A DNA stretch of 64,000 nt, taken from sequence record OM386661.1; one strand, given 5' to 3'. This document shows positions 11,785 through 61,573 of this stretch, piece after piece. Position 1 is the stretch's first letter; each line of letters starts with the position of its first letter. The notes below the pieces were generated by a model that made no database searches, had not been told where the DNA came from, and saw nothing but the letters and a program-made list of their open reading frames with translations. The stretch is from Escherichia phage vB_EcoM_ESCO45. The position numbers were made by a program, and so were the translations under genes.

Positions 11785-12150
11785 ATGAAGTGGCTAGAGG
11801 AAGCTTTTAAAAACAATATTGGTGCAATTGTAGTTGGTATTTTTAGTGTTATCGGAATGTATACCACCATGCAAGTGTCAAGTGGTAAACAAGAGGTGTC
11901 TGTCAAAACAAAGTTACAACAGTTGGATAATTACACAAGTAGTAACTATTCAGCTATTCGTGATTTACAGTCTGACATGAGACTGCTTCAGTTAGGGATG
12001 GAGAACCAGAAAGTTCAGTTAGAGAATGTTAAGGGTGAAAACGCAAAACTTACCAAAACTCTTGATAAATTCTCTGACAGTGTGAATAATCTGGCTCAAT
12101 CAGTATCAGCCCTCCAAGCTATTACTGAGAAGAATACAGAAGAACACTGA
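11785..12150 (+). CDS. membrane-anchored coiled-coil protein (possible lysis/holin-related)
   Basis: 121 aa, one predicted TM segment (IGAIVVGIFSVIGMYTTMQV) then heptad-like region; strong terminator directly downstream. Confidence 0.3.
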   Translation: MKWLEEAFKNNIGAIVVGIFSVIGMYTTMQVSSGKQEVSVKTKLQQLDNYTSSNYSAIRDLQSDMRLLQLGMENQKVQLENVKGENAKLTKTLDKFSDSVNNLAQSVSALQAITEKNTEEH

Positions 12151-35233: not shown

Positions 35234-35475
35234 TGACTTATGTAATTTACTCCAAAACTGGATGCCCTCAGTGTGAGACTGCAAAGAATTTTGCAAAAGC
35301 CCGTGGTATTGACCATGTTGTGAGAATGTTAGGGCAGGATTATGAGCTATCAGAACTAATGGATATTGCACAGATGCCAGTTCGTCAGATGCCATTCATC
35401 ATGAAAACTGATGGACAAAACCTAAAACCTGTTGGGACGCTACAGAATTTTATGGCAGAGGTGAATAATGCTTAA
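35233..35475 (+). CDS. glutaredoxin-like protein (NrdH/Grx)
   Basis: 80 aa; redox motif CPQC near N-terminus (YSKTGCPQCETAK). Confidence 0.7.
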   Translation: MTYVIYSKTGCPQCETAKNFAKARGIDHVVRMLGQDYELSELMDIAQMPVRQMPFIMKTDGQNLKPVGTLQNFMAEVNNA

Positions 35476-35674
35476 ACACATTTGGGAAGGTTTGGTTGTT
35501 GATGCACCAGCTATTGTGATTGGTATACTTATTGTTAACCTATTTACTGACTTTGAACAAGGTTCGTTGTTTGGAGCCATGTTACTATGGGTTATCTTTG
35601 AAATATTAGAGATACAGTTAGGTATCACTGAAAAACTAAGAGAACTCTTTGCGAAGTTTTCTAAAAAGATTTAA
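35468..35674 (+). CDS. small membrane protein
   Basis: 68 aa with two hydrophobic helices; terminator at 35681-35704. Confidence 0.35.
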   Translation: MLKHIWEGLVVDAPAIVIGILIVNLFTDFEQGSLFGAMLLWVIFEILEIQLGITEKLRELFAKFSKKI

Positions 35675-39386: not shown

Positions 39387-39722
39387 ATGAGAATCAAAGA
39401 AATGAACATTAGCGTTGTCCTAGAAGAACGTTGGGAAAACATTAAGAAGCCTGAAGATGGTAAAAAGTTTCTTAACAAAATTTTAGTAGCAGCTAAAGAA
39501 GAACTGACTGGCAAGATTGCAGCAGCAATCACAATAAAGGTTTGTGTAAAAGGTCTCCCAGACAATCACCAATTTGCTCTTGATGAGTTTAAAGAAAGCT
39601 TCTACAATCCAAACAAACAGATGCTTGAAAGTAACTTTGCAGTATCTACAAGTATCGTCCATGACAGAAGCTTTATCCTTTACAAAAATATGAGAGGTGA
39701 GTCATGCAAGCATATTGGATAG
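39387..39722 (+). CDS. hypothetical protein
   Basis: 111 aa ORF after terminator. Confidence 0.35.
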   Translation: MRIKEMNISVVLEERWENIKKPEDGKKFLNKILVAAKEELTGKIAAAITIKVCVKGLPDNHQFALDEFKESFYNPNKQMLESNFAVSTSIVHDRSFILYKNMRGESCKHIG

Positions 39723-39880
39723 AAATTTTGCTGTCACTTGGTAGCGTAGCAATCTTTGTTTACCTTCTTTGCAATTACTATGCAGAGCACAAGAAATGTT
39801 ACTACTGTAATGGAGAAGGCTATACAAGAGCAGGTTGTTGCCCTATGTGTGGCGGCTCTGGTAAAATGTTTAATAAGTAA
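39704..39880 (+). CDS. small membrane-anchored DnaJ-type zinc-finger protein (58 aa)
   Basis: Not in ORF track (<60 aa). RBS GAGGTGA; N-terminal TM helix WIEILLSLGSVAIFVYLL then CYYCNGEG and CPMCGGSG (two CxxCxGxG repeats). Confidence 0.4.
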   Translation: MQAYWIEILLSLGSVAIFVYLLCNYYAEHKKCYYCNGEGYTRAGCCPMCGGSGKMFNK

Positions 39881-39908: not shown

Positions 39909-42275
39909 ATGCGCATGGTAAACGACCACGCAGAAGTGATTAAGAGTTCAACTTCTTTGGAGACATCTCAAGCACAGATTATAATGACACCTGAAATGTT
40001 CAGTCTCCTGAGTTCTGATGTATATACCTTTAAAGAAAGAGCAGTGATTCGTGAACTATCGTGTAATGCAGTAGATGCTCAGAAAGAAGTTGGAAAAGAG
40101 AACATCCCATTCCATGTGCATTTACCTACTCGATTTGAGCCTTACTTTGAAGTCCGTGACTTTGGAACTGGTTTAACCCATGACAAAGTAATGAATTTGT
40201 ATCTGAACTATGGGGCTTCTACGAAGAATGATTCTAATGACTACATTGGTGCAATGGGTATCGGCTCAAAGTCACCGTTTGCGATTGCTCAGTCATTCAC
40301 AGTGTCTAGCTATGTTGATGGTGTTGTTAATAAATACTCTGTTTACCTTGAGAATGATATCCCTCAAGTAACTAAGCTTACTACTAACCAAACAAATGAA
40401 CCTAATGGATTAGCTGTACGTGTGGCTGTTGCTGACCATCGTATTTCAAAGTTCTTTGAAGAGGCTGGTCACGTATACTCATACTTTGCTGTAAAACCAG
40501 AAAGTAATATTGTATATGATGACGTGTTAGCAGATATGAACGTCATTGCCCGTGAAGAAGGTGTTTATGATGCCATGATTCATAAGCAAAGCTGGCGTTC
40601 CAGTATTAACAGAACAGGGTTTAATGTGGTGATGGGTAATATTGCCTATCCAGTTAATATGGAAGCATTACTTGGCGATGATTTCTTCAAGGTCTTGCCA
40701 GAATTTTTCCGTAGAAGTGTAGACCTTGTAAACATCTACATGCCTATTGGTTCAGTTGCTATTGCAGCTTCTCGTGAAGCATTGCAGATGAATGATACGA
40801 CAAAAAATGTTATCATTGAGGCTACTAAAAAGATAACTGAAGCAATTACAAGGGACGTTATTAAGGGGGTTAATAGCCAACCTACACTTATGGATGCTGC
40901 ACAGGCTTATGCAGAGCTACGCTTGAACTCACGAGAAATGTTTAATGCTGTGTGTCCAAAGCTAGAGTGGGGAGGTGTTAAGCTTGACTCTCTGGAAAAA
41001 GAATTGTTAAACATTCGTCGTGGAATTATCTACGCAGAAGATGGCTCAGTCATCTATGAACGTGACGGCAAAGGTAATATTAAGGTTGATAAGAACGGAA
41101 ACAACATCCCTAAAGTAGATTATCTTTATAGCCCAGTTGCTTATGTTAAGTTTAACTCTTTAGAGAGTAAGATTCGTGCAACAGCACTTTCCTACACTCA
41201 AGAGGCAAGTATGTTCAATATCTTTGGTGCAATGCGTAAAAGCCAAGTTGAACAGTTTTTGTTTGTTATTAATGACCGTCGCAATAAAAACGGTACTGAG
41301 AAGACTGTAGGACGCAATCAAATCTTGCGTGGTGCATGTCGAGACTACGCCAACGAGTCAAATCTGTTTCACAGATACAATGGTATTGTGTTTGTATTCT
41401 CGACTGAAAAAGAGTTAGATGATTTAATCAATCTACACAAACTTGATAAAAGCTTGTTAAAGATTGTGAAAATGTCTGATAAGGAACACCATTACCAGCG
41501 TAAAGAAGCTGTAAGAGGTGTTGTAAAACTCTGGAAAGCAGTTCCGGCAGAAGGTGTAGCCTCCTACAAAGAGGTGTCAGAAGACTTAGACACAATTGAG
41601 GAGCCTCAGCTTTACATTAAGGCAGTTGGTGACACAGTTGATGGTGAATGTTTTTGCTCATCTCCAGAAGATGTAGCTAAGTCAGTTGCTAATGTTACAG
41701 GGAAGACAGTCTATGTTTTCCGAAAAGCAAATTGGAAAAAGATACCAGAAGGCTGGATTGAAGTAGATGAGAAGCTCTTGAACGACAGCTTAACTGATGT
41801 TCATTGGATTAATCATAACAGGTATATGACACGCATCTACATGAATGGTGTTCTTGACCTTACAAGCAGTTGGATTATTGCCAGAAACTTTACATTCAAT
41901 AACAGGAAGATTTCTCGTGGTTATTGCTATTCACGAGATACTAACAAAACTATCTTCCTAGAAGGTAATGAGGATGCTGTAGAGGCAATTTTCGGTAAAA
42001 TCCAGTATGTTGCTGCACCATTTGCATACACTTACACTATTAGTGTCTTGCAAACTCTGAAAGGGTGTCTTGACAATAACACAAAGCTTTACAAGAAAAT
42101 CAGGAAAGCTGGTGACCGTATGGTTATTAAGGTGACAAACTACCTTTCAAAAAGAAAACAAGAAAATTTCTTGCTTTCCCATTTAGATTGGAATAAAGTG
42201 TCACCTATTGAAGTGAGTAAGCTCTTAGGCTTTGATGTGAAGTGTGTTCCAGAAGGTACAACACTTTACGATTAA
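39909..42275 (+). CDS. rIIA: rIIA-like protein (GHKL-type ATPase N-terminal domain)
   Basis: 788 aa; Bergerat-fold motifs IRELSCNAVDAQ (N box), DFGTGLT (G1), GAMGIGSKSPF (G2); size and pairing with downstream rIIB-like gene. Confidence 0.55.
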   Translation: MRMVNDHAEVIKSSTSLETSQAQIIMTPEMFSLLSSDVYTFKERAVIRELSCNAVDAQKEVGKENIPFHVHLPTRFEPYFEVRDFGTGLTHDKVMNLYLNYGASTKNDSNDYIGAMGIGSKSPFAIAQSFTVSSYVDGVVNKYSVYLENDIPQVTKLTTNQTNEPNGLAVRVAVADHRISKFFEEAGHVYSYFAVKPESNIVYDDVLADMNVIAREEGVYDAMIHKQSWRSSINRTGFNVVMGNIAYPVNMEALLGDDFFKVLPEFFRRSVDLVNIYMPIGSVAIAASREALQMNDTTKNVIIEATKKITEAITRDVIKGVNSQPTLMDAAQAYAELRLNSREMFNAVCPKLEWGGVKLDSLEKELLNIRRGIIYAEDGSVIYERDGKGNIKVDKNGNNIPKVDYLYSPVAYVKFNSLESKIRATALSYTQEASMFNIFGAMRKSQVEQFLFVINDRRNKNGTEKTVGRNQILRGACRDYANESNLFHRYNGIVFVFSTEKELDDLINLHKLDKSLLKIVKMSDKEHHYQRKEAVRGVVKLWKAVPAEGVASYKEVSEDLDTIEEPQLYIKAVGDTVDGECFCSSPEDVAKSVANVTGKTVYVFRKANWKKIPEGWIEVDEKLLNDSLTDVHWINHNRYMTRIYMNGVLDLTSSWIIARNFTFNNRKISRGYCYSRDTNKTIFLEGNEDAVEAIFGKIQYVAAPFAYTYTISVLQTLKGCLDNNTKLYKKIRKAGDRMVIKVTNYLSKRKQENFLLSHLDWNKVSPIEVSKLLGFDVKCVPEGTTLYD

Positions 42276-42355: not shown

Positions 42356-43465
42356 ATGACTACTAAAACTAAAGCACAGATTGACGCAGAAATTTACAAA
42401 CTGGTTAAAGAGGGCAAGCTGACTAAAACAGCTATTGCACAGAAATTTAACACCTCAACCCGTTCAGTCGGTCGTGCTGTAGAGCGTCATGAAGCAACCT
42501 TAAAAGGGAATAAAAAGGCAACTTCTACACCAGCTACGAAGACTTTAAAGCAAGTTGCTAAGACCTTTAAAAAGAAAGCTGATAAGCCAGTTAAAAAGGC
42601 TGTTAAAGAGGATGTACAGAAAGCTCCGGTAAATAAACTGCATGAAGCTATGCAGAATGGCAACCAGATTGAGTACATGATTACCGGCGACTCTGTTATC
42701 ATGATTTTCGGTGCAGACTCTGAAATCGTTGAATCTACCCATCCGAACTACAAAGAAATCGTGATGGCTGTTATATCCGGTGAATATAAGAAAGCTTTCG
42801 AACTGATGAACATTCGTAAGTCTATCGAAAACTTCACTCAGGGTGCTATCACCATCAAAGGTGACAAGTTATTCTATGGTGCTGTTGAGATGCGTTCTAC
42901 TCTGGTTGACCGTATTCTTCACATGATGAAGACTGGAGATAAAGGTTTTGAACGACTTGTAATGTTCTTTGAAAAACTGATGGAAAACCCATCTAAAGAC
43001 TCTGTAGAACAACTTTGGGGCTTCGTATCCCACCTTGATGTTGAAATTGATGAAGAAGGTTACATCATTGGTTGGAAGAAAGTATCTACTCGTGAAGGTA
43101 AGCTGGTTGACTCCCGCACCTGCAAAGTACCTAATGATTTGGGTAACATTGTAGAAATGCCACGTTGGATGGTTGATAATGACCGTAACGTGACTTGCTC
43201 TCAAGGTCTTCACGTTGGTGCTTGGGATTATGTTCGTTACTTCTCAGGCGATACAATTCTGAAGGTTCGTGTCCATCCACGAGATGTTGTGTCCGTACCA
43301 ACTGATTACAACGATATGAAGATGCGTTCATCACGTTATGAAGTTGCAGCAATCGTTGATAATCAACGTAAAGTGCTGAAAGAATGGGATGGTAAGACTG
43401 AAGCTTTGCATGTCATCGTTGGCACTGCTGGTGAACTTATCTCTCAGCGTAAACGTGAAATCTAA
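42356..43465 (+). CDS. rIIB: rIIB-like protein
   Basis: 369 aa immediately after rIIA-like gene; C-terminal half resembles rIIB as recalled (GDKLFYGAVEMRS..., CSQGLHVG..., VHPRDVVSVPTDYNDMKMR); not database-verified. Confidence 0.45.
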   Translation: MTTKTKAQIDAEIYKLVKEGKLTKTAIAQKFNTSTRSVGRAVERHEATLKGNKKATSTPATKTLKQVAKTFKKKADKPVKKAVKEDVQKAPVNKLHEAMQNGNQIEYMITGDSVIMIFGADSEIVESTHPNYKEIVMAVISGEYKKAFELMNIRKSIENFTQGAITIKGDKLFYGAVEMRSTLVDRILHMMKTGDKGFERLVMFFEKLMENPSKDSVEQLWGFVSHLDVEIDEEGYIIGWKKVSTREGKLVDSRTCKVPNDLGNIVEMPRWMVDNDRNVTCSQGLHVGAWDYVRYFSGDTILKVRVHPRDVVSVPTDYNDMKMRSSRYEVAAIVDNQRKVLKEWDGKTEALHVIVGTAGELISQRKREI

Positions 43466-43480
43466 TAAGTAATTTCTTAA

Positions 43481-43507
43481 AAGGCTGCTTCGGCGGCCTT
43501 TTTTATT
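43481..43507 (+). terminator. rho-independent terminator after rIIB-like gene
   Basis: AAGGCTGC-ttcg-GCGGCCTT followed by TTTTTATTT. Confidence 0.55.
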
Positions 43508-43534
43508 TGTATTTTGTGCAGAGTGCTGTATAAT
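43506..43534 (+). promoter_or_regulatory. sigma70-like promoter upstream of SLT gene
   Basis: perfect -10 TATAAT at 43529-43534 with TG two nt upstream; weak -35 TTTGTA. Confidence 0.4.
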
Positions 43535-43565
43535 TGTTGTTACGATAAACTAAACAGGAGAACCA

Positions 43566-44114
43566 ATGAAGAAATTGATTCTAGGTTTGTGCTTAATGTT
43601 TATAGCACACTTATCTTATGCAGTTGACTGCCCAGAGCTATCAATTAGTCAAAAAGTAAACATGTTAAAAGCTTACCAGTATGGTGAGAATAACATGGGT
43701 AAAGGTTGGGGTATCACTCTAGCTGCTATAGCCTTACAAGAGTCAGAGTTAGGTCTGAAGGTAGAGAATAAAAAGACACACGATTATGGTATTTTCCAGA
43801 ATCACTTGAAGACTGTTGTAAAGCGTAACAAAATTAGTCCTAATGTGGCTAAAAAGAAACTTTTAAAAGACTTTAACTATGCTGCGAAGGAAACTCACAA
43901 AGAGCTTGAGTTTTGGACAAAGGTACATGGTCAGCCAAAGTCAAAGAAGACTTTACAAAAAGTTTTAGCATCTTATAATGCTGGTTATTCGTACAGAATC
44001 CCTAAAGCTAAGAAGTATTCTCAAGATGTCTATAACAATATGAGAGTTATTGCTCAATGTGAATTTGCAACAAACATTTCTAAGGTAAATCATGAAAAAA
44101 TTAAGAAAGTCTGA
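43566..44114 (+). CDS. secreted lytic transglycosylase (SLT domain) with signal peptide
   Basis: 182 aa; signal peptide MKKLILGLCLMFIAHLSYA; SLT motifs ALQESELG (catalytic Glu), YGIFQ, SYNAGYSY. Confidence 0.55.
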   Translation: MKKLILGLCLMFIAHLSYAVDCPELSISQKVNMLKAYQYGENNMGKGWGITLAAIALQESELGLKVENKKTHDYGIFQNHLKTVVKRNKISPNVAKKKLLKDFNYAAKETHKELEFWTKVHGQPKSKKTLQKVLASYNAGYSYRIPKAKKYSQDVYNNMRVIAQCEFATNISKVNHEKIKKV

Positions 44115-44787
44115 TGAAGTCTTGTGTCATGCTTATGACTTACATCCTCATGAGTTAGGTATTGATTCCTTTGCATGGACTCCAGAACAGTGCAGGGATT
44201 TTGAAGACACTGCGAGAGAAGTTGTATGTTCACTTGAAGAGTTCCACACATCAGAGCCAATTGTGAATGTTGTAGATAAAGAGACTGGACAAACTATAGG
44301 CGTAAGCCGTGATAGCTTAGTCATAGTCAATAAAGACCTTGTAGAAAAAGGGAATCTCATCTTAGCAGATATTGATGGTATTCTTACAAATTTTAATCAC
44401 GAAGATTGTTCAACGGAGTTGACTGATGGGTCATTTTCACAGTACACTAATCTTCTTGATTCTGTAAGAGCAAAACCAACGTATGTTTTCAATATCATTA
44501 ATGCAATTGCTAATCATGCTGCTGTTGGACTCTTGACAGCCAGAGGTGAATCTCAGAGAATACCTACTGAGATGTTTTTAAGGCATAACATAGAGCATGA
44601 CTACATGCTTTTTATGCGTGGTTTTGGGGCTAACTCTATAAGTGCAGAAAGTTTGAAAGTGAGGATGATTCAGTCTTGCATTCTGCCTTACTTTAATATA
44701 GTATGTTTTATAGAAGATACAGAGAAGAATGTGCAGAAGGTGAACAGAATCCTTCCACACATCAAAACCATGTTAGTTAAACATTGA
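44092..44787 (+). CDS. HAD-superfamily-like hydrolase (putative phosphatase)
   Basis: 231 aa; LILADIDGIL resembles HAD motif I (DxDG); later motifs uncertain. Confidence 0.3.
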   Translation: MKKLRKSDEVLCHAYDLHPHELGIDSFAWTPEQCRDFEDTAREVVCSLEEFHTSEPIVNVVDKETGQTIGVSRDSLVIVNKDLVEKGNLILADIDGILTNFNHEDCSTELTDGSFSQYTNLLDSVRAKPTYVFNIINAIANHAAVGLLTARGESQRIPTEMFLRHNIEHDYMLFMRGFGANSISAESLKVRMIQSCILPYFNIVCFIEDTEKNVQKVNRILPHIKTMLVKH

Positions 44788-45272: not shown

Positions 45273-45296
45273 CAGGCTCCTTCGGGAGCCTTTTTA
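45273..45296 (+). terminator. rho-independent terminator upstream of dam
   Basis: GGCTCC-ttcg-GGAGCC followed by TTTTT. Confidence 0.65.
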
Positions 45297-45312
45297 AATT
45301 CAAGGAGTGCTA

Positions 45313-46197
45313 ATGAAACCAATGTTTAAGTATCTTGGTGGTAAAACAAGAATACTGAAAGAATATGAGCGTTTAGGTGTCTTTCCAGACAACTGTGAAA
45401 ACTTCTATGACCTGTTTTCAGGTGGTGGCTCAGTAGCTATCTGGGCTTATGATAAGTACCCAGAGGCAAAAATATTTATTAATGAAATAAACAAACATAT
45501 CATAGAACTTTACATAACCTTCAGGGATGATTACGACAAATTCATGGAAGAATTTCGACACTTGGCAAAAAGGTACTTAGCATTACCTATGCAGGAAGAG
45601 TACACTATGAAGGGGCAACGCCATAACCGATTACGTTATAAGATGTACTACAGTGTAAGAGATGAGCTTCTCACTCTTGGTGAATCTGGTGTCTATGACT
45701 ACAGATACTATGCCAGACAGTTTTTCCTTCAGAAACTAAGTTTTGGTGGTGTATGGCAGACAACTAAAGAGATGAAAGGGCACTATGCAACACCTTGCGG
45801 CTATTTGATGGAAGAAGAAGTTTTCTTTACAAAGACTGAAGAAGCACTAAAGGAGTTCTATAACTTCATCACTGATGAGAGGGTTGTCCTTAGCAGTAAT
45901 TCTTATGATATGGTTGATATAAAGCATGGAGAAGGGACAGTCATTTACTGTGACCCACCATATATAAACACCAACCAGAAATATGGCGCAAAGTTTGACG
46001 TTTCAATGTCTGTGAAATTGTGCAAAGACATATCTGATTGGGGGGAGTTAGGCTCTAAGGTGCTGATGTCAAACTCTCAGTGGGACGGATGGTCAAACCT
46101 AATTCCTGAAAATTTTCACTTGACAGAGGTTAATCATTCATACACAATACACGCACAGGGAAGCAAAGGTATTAACGAAGTAATTATCCACAACTAA
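45313..46197 (+). CDS. dam: DNA N6-adenine methyltransferase (Dam-like)
   Basis: KYLGGK motif near N-terminus, FSGGGSV SAM-binding loop, catalytic DPPY; start at ATG 45313 with RBS AAGGAG (track start 45307 is GTG). Confidence 0.75.
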   Translation: MKPMFKYLGGKTRILKEYERLGVFPDNCENFYDLFSGGGSVAIWAYDKYPEAKIFINEINKHIIELYITFRDDYDKFMEEFRHLAKRYLALPMQEEYTMKGQRHNRLRYKMYYSVRDELLTLGESGVYDYRYYARQFFLQKLSFGGVWQTTKEMKGHYATPCGYLMEEEVFFTKTEEALKEFYNFITDERVVLSSNSYDMVDIKHGEGTVIYCDPPYINTNQKYGAKFDVSMSVKLCKDISDWGELGSKVLMSNSQWDGWSNLIPENFHLTEVNHSYTIHAQGSKGINEVIIHN

Positions 46198-46208
46198 GGT
46201 ATAAAGTT

Positions 46209-47021
46209 ATGTCAAGTAGCATCAATGTAGCACTGAACGGTAAAGTTGTTAAAATGCACACTAAGATTATCAGTGTTGAGGATTTCCTTAACGAGAGACG
46301 CTACAAAGAAAATCCTCGTCAGCGAAATACACTGAAACGTCTGAAGAGTAAGCACCTCAATGGTGCTGTATCACCAGACCAAACAGTAGTCCATGTAGCT
46401 AAGTTTGGCAGTTCACTGTTTATTATTGATGGACACTCACGCCGAGAGGCATGGAAGGTAGGCAACCTGACACGACCAGAGAACCTGATTGCAGTTATAT
46501 ACCATGTGAACTCTATATTGGATGTCACAGACTTGTATACCCATTTTGACTCTGAATTAGCAAGAGAGAAGCCTTCTGAAGTTTATTACGGGAATATGAA
46601 GATGATTTCTTTCAATCCAGAATCAGAACTGATGAAAGCATCTTGGGCTACTGCCATTAAGTATGTTGCTGCATACTATGGTGTGCAACAGGTATCTAAC
46701 ACCGAAACAGTTAAATACCTTAATGATTTTAAGAATGAGTTGGAACAAATTGATTCTCTTGAAGTACAGCTTAAAGGTGTAGTAAACGCAAAACGCAAAT
46801 ACTCTTCTGGTATCCGTGCAGCAATGCTAATAACATTACGCCTATATGGTGATGCTGCATTCTCCTTTTGGGAGGATTATAACGATTACTGTGAAGGTAT
46901 GTCTAACAAATATGTTACAGAGTTATACCAACTAGCATTACAAGCTGGTCGCGGAGCACAGGCTGATAAGCTGTTGATGAATCAAGCAATTTCACTTGTC
47001 AACTATTACAGTCAAGAGTAA
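46209..47021 (+). CDS. ParB-like nuclease domain protein
   Basis: 270 aa; FIIDGHSRREAW resembles ParB/DUF262 DGxxR catalytic loop; directly downstream of Dam gene. Confidence 0.4.
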   Translation: MSSSINVALNGKVVKMHTKIISVEDFLNERRYKENPRQRNTLKRLKSKHLNGAVSPDQTVVHVAKFGSSLFIIDGHSRREAWKVGNLTRPENLIAVIYHVNSILDVTDLYTHFDSELAREKPSEVYYGNMKMISFNPESELMKASWATAIKYVAAYYGVQQVSNTETVKYLNDFKNELEQIDSLEVQLKGVVNAKRKYSSGIRAAMLITLRLYGDAAFSFWEDYNDYCEGMSNKYVTELYQLALQAGRGAQADKLLMNQAISLVNYYSQE

Positions 47022-47040
47022 TATACAGGCTCCTTCTGGA
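47016..47040 (+). terminator. rho-independent terminator after ParB-like gene
   Basis: GGCTCC-ttct-GGAGCC followed by TTTTCC. Confidence 0.55.
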
Positions 47041-47067
47041 GCCTTTTCCATTTTAGGAGATTGTTAA

Positions 47068-47415
47068 ATGACATTTAAAGAGTTCTGTCAAGCTACTTTC
47101 ATAATTGTTTTCTTAGTTGGGGCAGGTGTCTGGGGAGGATACTCTTACAGAGACTATCAAGTTGCTGAAGCTGAGCTAAACAATGAAAAGCTCATAAGTG
47201 TTGCTAAAGATGCTTATCAGGAAGGGTTAGCCACACTGAGCACCAATTACAAAAATGATTTGAAAGATGTGCTTGCTAAGAATAAGCATACAAAAGAGGT
47301 ACTAACATATGAAAAAACTAAGCCAGAGTTTTATAATGTTTGTGTTACTGATAACTATGTCAGGGTGTTCAACGAACAAAGTGAGCAGTACATTCAAAAA
47401 CTCCCAAGTAAGTGA
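47068..47415 (+). CDS. i-spanin (inner-membrane spanin subunit)
   Basis: 115 aa type-II membrane topology: N-terminal TM (FIIVFLVGAGVWGGY) then coiled-coil periplasmic domain; o-spanin gene embedded in +1 frame at 3' end. Confidence 0.45.
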   Translation: MTFKEFCQATFIIVFLVGAGVWGGYSYRDYQVAEAELNNEKLISVAKDAYQEGLATLSTNYKNDLKDVLAKNKHTKEVLTYEKTKPEFYNVCVTDNYVRVFNEQSEQYIQKLPSK

Positions 47416-47578
47416 GAGTGATAAGTACACTCAAGAAGAATCACGGTATATCATCAAAGGTAACACAGGCAGTGATGTAGCAGCAGCACTTGAGTTCTAT
47501 CGTGACGGCTTTTACCAGTGCACAATCAAAGCTAACAACCTTATTGACATGATTTTATTAGGGAATAAGCAGCAATGA
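47309..47578 (+). CDS. o-spanin (outer-membrane lipoprotein spanin subunit)
   Basis: 89 aa; lipoprotein signal with lipobox ITMSGC; starts inside i-spanin gene in a different frame; RBS AAAGAGGT. Confidence 0.45.
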   Translation: MKKLSQSFIMFVLLITMSGCSTNKVSSTFKNSQVSESDKYTQEESRYIIKGNTGSDVAAALEFYRDGFYQCTIKANNLIDMILLGNKQQ

Positions 47579-57727: not shown

Positions 57728-58261
57728 CTATAATTGTAGGTTGCATTCTTTACTTACCTCTTCAAGTTTAACCTCAGAGTCCTTAAGTCGTTTCTTATGA
57801 ACTCTGAACCTCATTAGTGAGATGATGATACCAGCTAAAGGAACAACATACAAGTACCAGATATCATGTAGCTTTGCAGTAATCTGTGTAATTGTCAAAT
57901 CTTGAGCTATGCAGCTAATTACTGATACTGTCAGTAACATTGCTAAGAAGAACGCCAGTACCATAACAATACTTAGGCAACCTCTGGCACGGTGTTCATG
58001 CTTAATGCACTTATTCTTTTCGTCAACAAGCCTGTTGTAGTCATTTGTAAAGTCTCTGTAGAAAGCTTTCAGGTATTCTTGAGTGTAGCCTTCAAAGCAA
58101 CCTGTACCATACCAATAATCACCACCAAAATGTGCTATGATACCGGTATCTCCATTCGGTTTTGTTACTCTTAGGGAGACATGATGACCAGTCTTCTGGT
58201 AATCTATTTTGTATCTTTCTTCGTAAATCATTTTCCAAACCCTCTCAATCGTTTGTTCCAT
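57728..58261 (-). CDS. membrane protein (soluble N-domain, two C-terminal TM helices)
   Basis: 177 aa; TM segments LSIVMVLAFFLAMLLTVSVISCI and YLYVVPLAGIIISLM. Confidence 0.4.
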   Translation of the reverse strand: MEQTIERVWKMIYEERYKIDYQKTGHHVSLRVTKPNGDTGIIAHFGGDYWYGTGCFEGYTQEYLKAFYRDFTNDYNRLVDEKNKCIKHEHRARGCLSIVMVLAFFLAMLLTVSVISCIAQDLTITQITAKLHDIWYLYVVPLAGIIISLMRFRVHKKRLKDSEVKLEEVSKECNLQL

Positions 58262-61108: not shown

Positions 61109-61573
61109 TTACTTTGGGTATACACTGTCAAGATAAATGTCAGCTTCCATTCTACGTCTGTTTTTCAGTCCGTTTGAAGTGACCTTCTTACCTTTGACTG
61201 TAACCTTGTTCCACCACTGCATAGCTTCTGCACAACCGACCTTATTACCAGCATTGTGGCGCTTGATAAACGTAGAGTCCTGCATAGCCGTGATACCAAT
61301 GTTGTATGTTTCACTTACAAGTGCGTCAAACTCATTCTGAGAAGTTGGAACCTTGATGGCTTTGTTAACTGCTGCAACGAACTTTTCAACATCTTCGAGA
61401 AGATACTGTTCAGCTTGTCCAGCGGTAATCTTCATACCCATCTTAACAGGTTTGCCAGAAATACGGATTGTTCCGTACCCAATTGTGGGGATTCCAGCAG
61501 AATCTTCGTAAGCCTCTAGCTTAAGACCTTCAAAGAACTTAATAGCTTCTAAGCCTTTTCTTGAGAGTTGCAT
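61109..61573 (-). CDS. endolysin, T4-lysozyme-like muramidase (GH24)
   Basis: 154 aa; FEGLKLEAYEDSAGIPTIGYG matches GH24 lysozyme catalytic region; minus-strand terminator at 61076-61098. Confidence 0.75.
   Translation of the reverse strand: MQLSRKGLEAIKFFEGLKLEAYEDSAGIPTIGYGTIRISGKPVKMGMKITAGQAEQYLLEDVEKFVAAVNKAIKVPTSQNEFDALVSETYNIGITAMQDSTFIKRHNAGNKVGCAEAMQWWNKVTVKGKKVTSNGLKNRRRMEADIYLDSVYPK

Follow-up and report, generated by a model that had tools for sequence, protein, structure and literature searches.

The window, a 64,000-nucleotide stretch of DNA from Escherichia phage vB_EcoM_ESCO45 (OM386661.1), is ~96% identical at the DNA level to Felix O1-like phages and falls within Felixounavirus. 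Immediately downstream of an rIIB homologue it carries a gene for a 182-aa precursor, predicted to be an exported murein glycosidase of the SLT/GH23 type and referred to here as the enzyme. The open reading frame proposed in the first-pass annotation was recovered at exactly the same coordinates, on the + strand, and is preceded by a ribosome-binding site (RBS). The genes and signals of the region are as follows:

39909-42275: rIIA (context)
42356..43465, + strand: rIIB homologue, immediately upstream of the enzyme gene (phrog_609, E=2e-88)
43479..43502, + strand: intrinsic terminator 3' of rIIB, with a 10-bp GC-rich stem, a TTCG loop and a T-run (scan and sequence)
43507..43534, + strand: candidate weak sigma-70-like promoter, TTGTAT-16 nt-TATAAT, 9/12 match (inferred from sequence)
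43556..43560, + strand: RBS AGGAG, with the ATG 5 nt further on (sequence; an RBS is also annotated at the equivalent site in phage Meda)
43566..44114, + strand: coding sequence of the enzyme, ATG start, stop included
44092..44787, + strand: polynucleotide kinase, pseT homologue (phrog_3970, E=5e-133)

The terminator marks the boundary between the rII genes and the enzyme gene; it is identical in ESCO56 and Felix O1, and the annotation of Salmonella phage Meda has a terminator at the corresponding site. The candidate promoter that follows lies under the per-hexamer threshold of the promoter scan, its -35 hexamer matching at 3/6 positions. The whole module from terminator to ATG is 100% conserved among the window, ESCO56 and Felix O1, with ESCO56 carrying three extra genes upstream. 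At the distal end, the enzyme gene shares its final 23 nt with the start of the pseT homologue, which places both in one transcription unit.

Catalytic motifs, fold and chemistry

Three segments of the coding sequence hold the residues expected of an SLT-type active site:

43740..43745, + strand: codons of the catalytic Glu59 and of Ser60, motif I (ES), aligning with the catalytic-Glu region of EtgA and SLT
43782..43799, + strand: D73-Y-G75-I-F-Q78, comprising motif II (G-x-x-Q; G75-I-F-Q78 at 43788-43799) and an Asp at the position of EtgA D60/HEWL D52
43974..44018, + strand: from Y137-N-A-G140 (motif III, 43974-43985) to Y151 (motif IV)

Family 1 of the Blackburn and Clarke classification reportedly combines E-S, G-[LIV]-[MF]-Q and [AS]-Y-N-[AG]-G with a conserved Tyr further on, and all four are present in the enzyme as E59-S60, G75-I-F-Q78, S136-Y-N-A-G140 and Y151, at positions that are invariant or nearly so in the family. 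The same motifs are common to Slt70, MltC, MltE, MltF and the goose-type lysozymes (GH23). In an alignment of 169 diverged relatives, taken from 1166 metagenome clusters at 50% identity, E59, Y137, G140 and Y151 are invariant (169/169) and the S60 position is Ser or Thr throughout, against a column identity of otherwise only 21-40%. The ES, GIFQ and YNAG motifs noted at first pass are therefore not a chance resemblance. The AF2 model of the enzyme (pLDDT 85.4, pTM 0.79) retrieves exclusively GH23 proteins as its top Foldseek matches, in keeping with a lysozyme-like α-helical GH23 fold.

Sequence searches place the enzyme near the limit of detection when it is used alone and well within it at the family level. 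The Pfam SLT profile (PF01464) scores the enzyme at 19.1 bits (E=0.001), 2.2 bits short of the gathering cut-off of 21.3, and matches 59/83 relatives at E<=0.01, with a best value of E=2.8e-12. Family profiles searched against the PDB find EtgA (E=4.5e-5 for profile A1 and 1.7e-6 for A3) as the sole sequence below 0.01; the corresponding single-sequence search with the enzyme returned only a spurious match to BvgS (E=0.53), and a search of NCBIfam with the enzyme gave no match. Similarity to the host family-1 lytic transglycosylases likewise lies under the detection limit of single-sequence searches. Compared with Slt70, MltC or MltF, the enzyme is far smaller, has no accessory domains and is not a lipoprotein.

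The score under the Pfam cut-off would suit a protein that has retained the lysozyme fold but not catalysis and acts by binding murein or as a decoy; nevertheless, the catalytic Glu and the three substrate-groove motifs are invariant in 169 sequences, leaving this reading with the faintest of prospects.

The first-pass label of lytic transglycosylase is not secure, since D73, aligned with EtgA D60/HEWL D52, makes hydrolytic (muramidase) chemistry conceivable. Among the 169 relatives this position is occupied by Asp in 54, Ser in 96 and Ala in 14. As judged from the sequence, 1,6-anhydroMurNAc is the most likely product, with lysozyme-like hydrolysis through Asp73 as a possible alternative.

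Export signal and paired cysteines

The N-terminus of the precursor shows the features of a cleavable Sec signal:

43566..43622, + strand: predicted signal peptide, aa 1-19, MKKLILGLCLMFIAHLSYA, with the signal peptidase I (SPase I) cut expected at A19/V20, followed by VD (feature-based prediction)

The call relies on hand-made feature rules, not on a trained predictor. The segment starts with MKK and carries a net charge of +2 ahead of a Leu-rich core of 13 residues, with small residues at positions -3 and -1 (S-Y-A); the predicted mature enzyme would have 163 aa, a mass of 18.7 kDa and a pI of 9.8. There is no lipobox, since Leu occupies position -1 of C9. An N-terminal hydrophobic core is present in 151/169 relatives (~90%), the remainder being mostly apparent N-terminal truncations or proteins with the core placed further in, so that the Sec signal peptide of the first-pass annotation is upheld by its sequence features and by its conservation throughout the family.

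Two cysteines, C22 and C165 in the enzyme, show a coupled distribution across the relatives: both are present in 81, neither in 75, the N-terminal one only in 9 and the C-terminal one only in 0 (counts uncorrected for phylogeny). The number of Cys in the mature protein is even in 138/169 relatives. Joint retention or loss of the two positions is the pattern expected of a periplasmic disulfide, and these co-occurrence statistics suggest a C22-C165 bond. The invariant catalytic Glu, the family-wide export signal and the paired Cys together point to an active periplasmic enzyme; the earlier description as an exported murein-degrading protein thus gains support in silico from the export signal, the joint Cys pair and the invariant catalytic residues.

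An uncleaved N-terminus would make the protein a SAR (signal-arrest-release) endolysin, held by a weakly hydrophobic tether and inactive until pinholin depolarisation. The hydrophobic segment is indeed preceded by two Lys, and C9 lies within it and recurs in several relatives, recalling P1 Lyz, in which a Cys of the SAR domain drives disulfide isomerisation. However, SAR segments are Gly/Ala/Ser-rich and span ~18 or more residues, whereas the core of the enzyme is ~13 residues long and rich in Leu, Ile and Phe, not Gly/Ala, hence both too short and too hydrophobic, and the uncharged runs of the family peak at 14-17 residues. Furthermore, a polar c-region follows the core and obeys the -3/-1 rule (S-Y-A/V), T4 Vs.1 and many relatives are devoid of Cys, and the catalytic residue is Glu rather than Cys. 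A SAR endolysin is accordingly regarded as highly improbable.

Export also bears on the suggestion that the enzyme acts at entry, as a virion-associated murein hydrolase aiding tail penetration. SLT domains are frequent in phage tail and internal proteins, and among the BFVD matches are tape-measure proteins, internal-core proteins, PRD1 P7 and proteins of the T7 gp16 type; the enzyme is, by contrast, a stand-alone secreted protein and not a domain of such a tail or internal protein. A cleavable Sec signal would remove it from the compartment where virions are assembled, which makes an entry role unlikely, and the gene belongs to the early region around rII and pseT, at a distance from the structural modules. 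In T4, the virion is not known to contain Vs.1. In Felix O1, a 95.5%-identical relative and not ESCO45 itself, mass spectrometry of the virion identified 17 structural proteins, gp3 being absent (PMC3185647). The entry role put forward at first pass is thus not sustained, and a virion hydrolase retains only a minute share of our confidence.

The T4 Vs.1/Felix O1 ORF3 family

By sequence comparison, the enzyme is a member of the known T4 Vs.1/Felix O1 ORF3 family, already annotated in public genomes, an affiliation that the first-pass annotation did not recognise. It is 100% identical to ESCO56_00079, annotated as 'putative lysin', and matches phrog_600 with E=7.2e-57, residues 1-170 aligning with positions 1-176 of the 178-position profile. 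A tblastn search of T4-type genomes identified T4 Vs.1 (31.6% identity over residues 1-155, 85% of the length, E=2e-9), the match being the coding sequence flanked by regB and vs; homology to the 'vs-regB intergenic' protein is already mentioned in the record of Felix O1 ORF3. The enzyme has the family's architecture of an export signal and one lysozyme-like domain, the relatives being mostly 160-200 aa long. Members occur in ~1,900 genomes out of a set of 50,697 deposited phages, T4, Felix O1 and Vi1-like phages among them, and the PHROG 600 relatives span Straboviridae, Ackermannviridae and Ounavirinae. The Campylobacter coli protein P0020 is also a member; it was considered as a Fletchervirus endolysin and rejected as such, all its phage matches being of the Vs.1 type and below 60% identity.

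T4 Vs.1 (P13311, 'hypothetical 20.7 kDa protein in vs-regB intergenic region') resembles the enzyme in its length of 181-182 aa, signal peptide, single SLT-like domain, invariant motifs and pre-late gene neighbourhood. It differs in having zero cysteines and an Ala at the position of Asp73, where the enzyme has C22/C165 and Asp73, and in its genomic position: T4 vs.1 lies between regB and the gene of a secreted Cys-rich protein, 'Vs', whereas the enzyme gene lies between rIIB and pseT. A homologue of T4 'Vs' was sought in the window and none was found (best E=0.05). A 2006 comparative-genomics study remarked that vs.1 is marginally SLT-like (PMC1524935); when the searchable literature was screened for functional studies of vs.1 or Felix O1 ORF3, this remark and genome notes were all that emerged, and no biochemical or genetic characterisation of any homologue. 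Taken together, the gene product is very probably a Vs.1-family SLT/GH23 enzyme that is exported and serves neither as a virion enzyme nor as the main endolysin.

Other lysis genes and the question of a second endolysin

The window encodes further components of a lysis system at dispersed sites:

47068..47415, + strand: i-spanin with an N-terminal TMD (context, lysis system)
47309..47578, + strand: o-spanin, a lipoprotein with lipobox MSGC, overlapping the i-spanin (O-spanin annotated in Meda and ESCO56)
61109..61573, - strand: GH24 (T4-lysozyme-type) endolysin, homologue of Felix O1 gp35 (PF00959, E=1.3e-40; PMC3185647)

Both of these assignments agree with the first-pass annotation. The GH24 protein, encoded on the minus strand, shows in addition to the PF00959 match the E15-8aa-D24-5aa-T30 catalytic triad and no N-terminal hydrophobic segment; it is the cytoplasmic, main endolysin. 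A canonical endolysin has no export signal and builds up in the cytoplasm until the membrane is opened by the holin, and the enzyme, with its signal peptide, differs from the GH24 protein in this respect. The spanin pair at 47068-47578, with its TMD-bearing i-spanin and lipobox-bearing o-spanin, is the sole match of a feature-based spanin detector in the whole window. A search of the window for a holin identified none, the small membrane-protein ORFs matching only PHROGs of unknown function.

The coexistence of two murein-acting enzymes raises the possibility of a true second endolysin, one that carries a signal peptide, needs no holin for its export, is held latent by the energised membrane, could lyse the cell unaided after holin triggering and would thus be redundant with the GH24 enzyme. 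Public records name the protein 'putative lysin' or 'lysin', and Felix O1 ORF3 falls in the same RT-PCR class as the lysin gp35. Precedents are also available. The Lys protein of the Campylobacter Fletchervirus F352 requires Sec for export and holin co-expression for lysis of E. coli (PMC7692668), illustrating that SP-type, holin-activated SLT endolysins exist in phages of Gram-negative bacteria. F352 Lys (188 aa, from a Gram-negative myovirus) combines a cleavable-type signal peptide with an SLT domain, and its phage, like that of the enzyme, has dispersed lysis genes; nevertheless, it is the designated endolysin of F352, whereas the phage of the enzyme has a GH24 endolysin as well. Membership of F352 Lys in the Vs.1 family was rejected (BLASTP E=5, hhalign probability 0.4%); it offers, as an analogue only, a working model for an exported SLT enzyme that is tolerated until triggering. 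Kayvirus Tgl, proposed as an additional endolysin, is a second such case: it is expressed from an early promoter, secreted and able to lyse cells after nisin treatment, with evidence from zymograms, E. coli lysis and nisin triggering, and is proposed to act with the endolysin (PMC7150955). The Tgl of this Staphylococcus phage K group shares with the enzyme Sec-dependent secretion (predicted in the enzyme), lytic-transglycosylase motifs and a position supplementary to the major endolysin, and its promoter is of the host-RNA-polymerase (early) type; it differs in its Gram-positive host and IsaA/SceD-like lineage.

Against redundancy with the endolysin, a canonical endolysin is also retained in every sampled lineage that carries the gene, F352 Lys is not detectably homologous, and T4 Vs.1 protein builds up from middle times without lysis. 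In addition, T4 endolysin (e) mutants fail to lyse despite carrying vs.1, so any contribution of a vs.1-type enzyme to lysis must be auxiliary. The first-pass notion of a second endolysin holds in so far as the enzyme exists beside the GH24 endolysin, and is weakly supported where sufficiency for lysis is concerned; we judge a true second endolysin improbable.

Expression timing and gene neighbourhood

In T4, vs.1 RNA is early and the protein appears at middle times, a class common to rIIB, pseT and the i-spanin gene pseT.3. Felix O1 ORF3 reaches its maximum at 25 min by end-point RT-PCR, where it is grouped with ORFs 1, 4, 6 and 35; timing by this approach is coarse, and the main lysin gp35 falls in the class of ORF3. 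By analogy, synthesis of the enzyme most likely starts before the late phase, in the early or middle period, together with that of the rII, pseT and spanin products.

Neighbourhoods were compared in 40 de-duplicated loci. The homologue lies directly downstream of rIIA/rIIB in 8/40, from diverged lineages, with a spanin pair within 4 kb in 6/40 and a polynucleotide kinase within 3 kb in 7/40. In Cronobacter phage S13 the stop of the homologue overlaps the i-spanin start, and in Aeh1 the homologue is located between pseT.2 and pseT; in T4 proper, vs.1 is beside regB and distant from the spanins. Linkage to spanins is lineage-specific (6/40 loci) and may merely reflect ancestral linkage to pseT. 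Clustering of the ORFs within 4 kb of the 40 loci yielded no universal neighbour, partner or inhibitor, the recurrent neighbours being lineage-specific only.

EtgA and a possible remodelling unrelated to lysis

The PDB relative found by the family profiles is EtgA, the peptidoglycan glycosidase of the EPEC type III secretion system (PDB codes 8URN and 4XP8), with its IpgF/IagB-type relatives. EtgA and the enzyme share a common architecture comprising a Sec signal, one ~150-aa domain and a disulfide (predicted in the enzyme), and their active sites pair as E42/E59, D60/D73, Q65/Q78 and Y116-N-x-G119/Y137-N-A-G140. The ambiguity between lytic transglycosylase and muramidase likewise applies to both. 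On the other hand, identity is only ~21%, and the D60-type Asp of EtgA occurs in just 54/169 Vs.1 relatives. EtgA is moreover directed to EscI, the inner-rod protein of the T3SS, which also activates it, whereas the enzyme has no secretion-system context or partner: its setting, the phage early genes rIIB and pseT, is not that of a secretion, conjugation or flagellar apparatus. A tblastn search of a plasmid collection found no homologue at E<=1, which argues against a close tie to the transglycosylases of conjugation or T4SS.

In the most serious alternative, the enzyme remodels periplasmic peptidoglycan for purposes unrelated to lysis, including (i) a passage through the murein for assembly of an envelope-spanning phage structure, a service that EtgA/VirB1-type enzymes render to secretion systems, (ii) an envelope change that keeps out superinfecting phages, or (iii) interference with the wall metabolism or signalling of the host during take-over. 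In its favour, EtgA is the sole sequence relative with a solved structure, shares the signal peptide, small domain and disulfide, and is dedicated to a secretion system; T4 vs.1 is expressed at early or middle times; the gene recurs 3' of rIIA/rIIB, whose products are membrane-associated, in the 8/40 loci mentioned above; and the non-lysing phenotype of T4 e mutants is compatible with a function outside lysis. Set against this, no partner gene is conserved across lineages in the 40 loci, homologues were found neither in the plasmid collection (E<=1) nor in secretion-system contexts, and nothing ties the Vs.1 family to superinfection phenotypes. We also know of no phage envelope-spanning machine that requires a murein hole after infection, and spanins pass through the murein mesh unaided. 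Such lysis-unrelated remodelling is considered unlikely, though appreciably less so than the other rivals.

A proposed accessory periplasmic enzyme

The explanation favoured here, by a narrow balance, is that of an exported Vs.1-family glycosidase with an accessory role in lysis. In this view the gene encodes the orthologue of T4 Vs.1 in Felix O1-type phages, a murein glycosidase that is small and basic and consists of one domain with the SLT/GH23 fold. Its gene and the pseT homologue would be transcribed pre-late from their own unit just 3' of rIIA/rIIB; the precursor would be exported by Sec and cut by signal peptidase I after Ala19, and the Cys22-Cys165 disulfide would stabilise the product in the periplasm. 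There it would cut the MurNAc-(β-1,4)-GlcNAc bond, with Glu59 as general acid. Pre-positioned in the periplasm and tolerated as long as the cell is energised and wall synthesis continues, the enzyme would nick or thin the sacculus, which might allow the endolysin released by the holin to destroy it, and the spanins to act in turn, faster and more fully. The accessory, pre-positioned muralytic role, taken by itself, is tentative, and we place it somewhat short of an even chance. Among the options listed at first pass, 'cell-wall remodelling rather than canonical lysis' appears to fit best.

A broader and distinctly more speculative proposal, which we rate as unlikely, would see the Vs.1-family enzymes as a conserved third murein-acting component of the envelope/lysis programme of large virulent myoviruses, exported early, restrained and coupled to the spanins. 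It draws on the translational coupling in S13, the linkage to pseT/spanin and rIIA/rIIB genes that recurs in separate lineages, and the timing class of the T4 spanin gene. The coupling may consist in licensing or accelerating outer-membrane disruption or in setting the timing of lysis, and in T4-like phages the co-translated, secreted, Cys-rich 'Vs' protein might exert the periplasmic restraint on Vs.1.

Significance

The gene was already known as an annotation, and to that the finding in the window adds nothing. The family is nonetheless of interest in several respects: it might furnish a basic muralytic enzyme of small size that is secreted by nature, and the Vi1-like phages that carry it are used in typing and therapy. 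A conserved, periplasm-exported murein cutter made long before lysis fits poorly with the textbook holin-endolysin-spanin scheme, and the role of the Vs.1 family, once worked out, would supply a missing piece of a lysis system that ranks among the most thoroughly studied.

Gene and Transcription Unit

The putative exported murein glycosidase is encoded exactly where the first-pass annotation had placed it, preceded by a terminator and a ribosome-binding site:

43479-43502: strong intrinsic terminator, closing the rIIB gene (terminator scan)
Five bases 5' of the enzyme ATG, + strand: ribosome-binding site AGGAG (sequence inspection)
43566..44114, + strand: enzyme ORF, ATG start, 182 aa

The sole promoter-like match in the terminator-to-RBS interval is a weak sigma-70-like element, TTGTAT-16-TATAAT, read by eye from the sequence and scoring below the promoter-scan threshold. 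The start of the next gene, for a polynucleotide kinase (phrog_3970, E=5e-133), lies 23 nt ahead of the enzyme stop, which makes co-transcription of both genes very probable and translational coupling possible. In the Salmonella phage Meda (L004:1783-2478), the kinase downstream of an intact enzyme gene comprises two CDSs, a split confirmed by the depositors on re-sequencing, so at least one Felixounavirus carries a pseT homologue that it can dispense with or that is frameshifted.

DNA identity of the region with Felix O1-like members of Felixounavirus (Ounavirinae) is 95-96%, and of 256 matching records 227 have ≥80% query coverage. The enzyme is 100% identical to ESCO56_00079, labelled 'putative lysin', and its Felix O1 counterpart is ORF3, whose RefSeq note, 'hypothetical 20.7 KD protein in vs-regB intergenic region', uses an earlier designation of T4 Vs.1. 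Public annotation and a 2006 paper already cover the gene, its SLT similarity and the T4 homology; the signal peptide is at most implicit in the annotation of relatives. The first-pass finding is correct but ordinary for the window. Window, Felix O1 and ESCO56 have the same sequence from the terminator to the ATG, although ESCO56 has three additional genes between rIIB and the terminator; the terminator-to-enzyme unit therefore travels as a module.

Further downstream, two genes are inserted relative to Felix O1, bounded by terminators at 45274-45291 and 47027-47044:

45307-46197: DNA adenine-methyltransferase-like gene (phrog_56, E=1e-49)
46209-47021: 270-aa ORF (phrog_2615, unknown function)

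In Felix O1 the spanins directly follow ORF5 with no intervening cargo, and ESCO56 carries the methyltransferase alone at this site, besides the three additional genes that separate rIIB from the enzyme gene in that phage; 45307-47021 is a variable-cargo hot spot. Records labelled as phages of Staphylococcus or Campylobacter (for example GU169904.1, 'Staphylococcus phage SA1', and two 'Campylobacter' records) contain a near-identical Felix O1-type locus, which points to chimeric or mislabelled deposits rather than true host range.

Family Membership and Catalytic Motifs

Taken alone, the protein falls short of the Pfam SLT cut-off (19.1 against 21.3 bits; E=0.001), and single-sequence searches of PDB and NCBIfam returned no matches. 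The evidence at the level of the family is strong. Profile search assigns the protein to PHROG 600 (E=7e-57), the Vs.1 family, and 1,929 phage records contain relatives by tblastn, including (i) T4-type Vs.1 (31.6% identity over 85%), (ii) Ackermannviridae 'Vs.1', and (iii) T4-like phages of Aeromonas, Vibrio, and Acinetobacter. Searched by profile, 1.84 billion representatives yielded 1,166 clusters at E≤0.001, nearly all single-domain proteins of 160-200 aa. Pfam SLT is matched by 59 of 83 family members (best E-value 2.8e-12), the BFVD matches are phage 'Transglycosylase SLT domain-containing' proteins, and the one solved protein matched by the family profiles is EtgA, the peptidoglycan glycosidase of the EPEC type III system (E=4.5e-5 and 1.7e-6).

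The SLT motifs reported by the first-pass annotation are genuine: E59, Y137, G140, and Y151 are identical in all 169 aligned relatives, and position 60 (Ser in the enzyme) is invariably Ser or Thr. The motifs are thus under strong selection and an inactive decoy is unlikely; an inert binder is correspondingly given very little credence. We are highly confident that the enzyme belongs to the T4 Vs.1 family and is a periplasmic murein glycosidase of SLT/GH23 type.

Asp73, two residues N-terminal of G75, aligns with EtgA Asp60, the equivalent of HEWL Asp52 and a residue that matters for EtgA activity; in the paper describing the EtgA fusion structure, the authors say that muramidase and lytic transglycosylase cannot yet be told apart for that enzyme (PMC10880428). 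Among the 169 relatives, 54 have Asp here, 96 Ser, and 14 Ala; T4 Vs.1 has Ala, whereas the enzyme in the window has Asp. For Felix O1-type proteins, the name lytic transglycosylase is no more than probable.

Predicted Export and Cysteine Pattern

The N-terminus comprises MKK, LILGLCLMFIAHL, and SYA/VD, in which a positively charged n-region leads into a short core of strong hydrophobicity and then a c-region fitting the -3/-1 rule. The layout is shared by T4 Vs.1 and 151 of 169 relatives, the other 18 being mostly apparent start-codon miscalls or proteins with the core further in. The claimed Sec signal peptide is thereby upheld as a prediction, and feature rules strongly argue for export of a mature protein of 163 aa, 18.7 kDa, and pI 9.8. 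A lipoprotein was rejected for want of a lipobox, and a SAR domain since the segment is too short and too Leu-rich; a SAR endolysin is accordingly most improbable.

A cysteine just after the predicted cleavage site (C22) co-occurs with one in the last helix (C165): both are present in 81 relatives, neither in 75, only the N-terminal one in 9, and only the C-terminal one in none (Fisher's test p=4e-37, treating relatives as independent and ignoring kinship). The mature cysteine count is even in 138 of 169, a pattern that would be expected of a structural disulfide formed in the periplasm.

A further cysteine, C9, noted in the enzyme (43566-43622) and in relatives P0001, P0003, P0010, and P0017, lies mid-core of the signal peptide (LGLC9LMF) in Felix O1-type proteins and some T4-type relatives. 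Leu or Ile at -1 means that it is not part of a lipobox, and it may simply be a hydrophobic residue.

Other Lysis Genes in the Window

The GH24 lysozyme and the spanin pair named by the first-pass annotation both stand. No holin is recognisable by annotation or profile in the window, and small ORFs with one or two predicted TM segments match only PHROGs of unknown function:

61109-61573, - strand: GH24 enzyme (PF00959, E=1.3e-40; E-8-D-5-T triad), without hydrophobic N-terminus
Spanin pair: i-spanin with N-terminal TMD and overlapping o-spanin with lipobox MSGC, the single match of a feature-based spanin detector in 64 kb
35468-35674: small membrane-protein ORF, 68 aa, two TMDs
11785-12150: small membrane-protein ORF
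39704-39880: small membrane-protein ORF
57728-58261: small membrane-protein ORF

The GH24 enzyme has its Felix O1 homologue in gp35, which the genome paper of that phage names as the lysin; the same paper also left the holin open (PMC3185647). By size and topology, the 35468-35674 product is the most holin-like.

Genomic Neighbourhoods in Other Lineages

From 79 viral loci fetched, 40 de-duplicated loci were examined, among which no neighbour is conserved in all lineages. The homologue follows rIIA-rIIB in 8 loci and regB in 7, as in T4 proper, where vs.1 adjoins regB; a pseT homologue lies within 3 kb in 7 and a spanin pair within 4 kb in 6.

Three T4-like lineages place the Vs.1 homologue directly beside spanin genes and pseT: Cronobacter phage S13, locus L041:10001-12341, and Aeromonas phage Aeh1. 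In S13 (NC_028773.1, L086:1019-2201), the order is alc, homologue, i-spanin, o-spanin, and pseT, with the homologue stop and i-spanin start overlapping by 4 nt; in Aeh1 (L006:2044-5025), it is pseT.3, pseT.2, a small ORF, vs.1, an ORF, and pseT. The linkage to spanins and pseT hints at a function in the envelope or in lysis, but may be inherited synteny; a regulated periplasmic enzyme functionally coupled to the spanins is a rather doubtful reading.

T4 Vs, annotated 'Vs valyl-tRNA synthetase modifier' and encoded directly 3' of vs.1 (L001:3039-3386 in the T4-type genome LR597657.1), displays a textbook signal peptide (N-terminus MTKILVLCIGLISFSASASA/DT) and four Cys in its mature part; the vs.1 stop and the vs start overlap by 8 nt. 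A secreted Cys-rich protein weakly similar to Vs (E=4e-4) follows vs.1 at L046:10556-10870 and five further T4-like loci. A periplasmic Vs is hard to square with modification of a cytoplasmic tRNA synthetase; Vs could instead partner or inhibit Vs.1. The window contains no Vs homologue.

Timing and Proposed Role

Within the library searched, the literature search returned no reported experiment on any Vs.1-family member. In T4 time-resolved omics, vs.1 falls in the early RNA/middle protein class, as do rIIB, pseT, and pseT.3, which encodes the i-spanin; pseT.2, for the o-spanin, is early/early (PMC9697503 supplements). In Felix O1, coarse end-point RT-PCR places the ORF3 maximum at 25 min, a class shared with ORFs 1, 4, 6, and 35 (PMC3185647 Table 3). 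Virion mass spectrometry of Felix O1 identified 17 structural proteins without gp3 (PMC3185647), and Sec export would keep the protein apart from cytoplasmic virion assembly; the entry role suggested by the first-pass annotation is therefore unlikely, and a virion enzyme scarcely credible.

Peptidoglycan remodelling independent of lysis, also raised by the first-pass annotation, comes first among the rivals, with perhaps one chance in four; the kinship with EtgA, the linkage to rII genes, and the failure of T4 e mutants to lyse despite carrying vs.1 speak for it. A self-sufficient second endolysin, the remaining suggestion, is placed second and is improbable.

Two experimentally studied phage enzymes, analogues only, act in the manner proposed here. 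The Lys protein of Campylobacter phage F352 combines a signal peptide with an SLT domain, with no detectable homology to the Vs.1 family; it needs Sec for export and lysed E. coli only with holin co-expression (PMC7692668). Kayvirus Tgl, secreted and bearing lytic-transglycosylase motifs, has an early-type promoter and is the proposed assistant of the main endolysin LysK (PMC7150955). We tentatively favour an accessory lysis helper, itself rather less than an even bet, in which the enzyme would be made ahead of late times, would be tolerated as long as the cell is energised, and would weaken the sacculus such that endolysin and spanins may complete its destruction fast.
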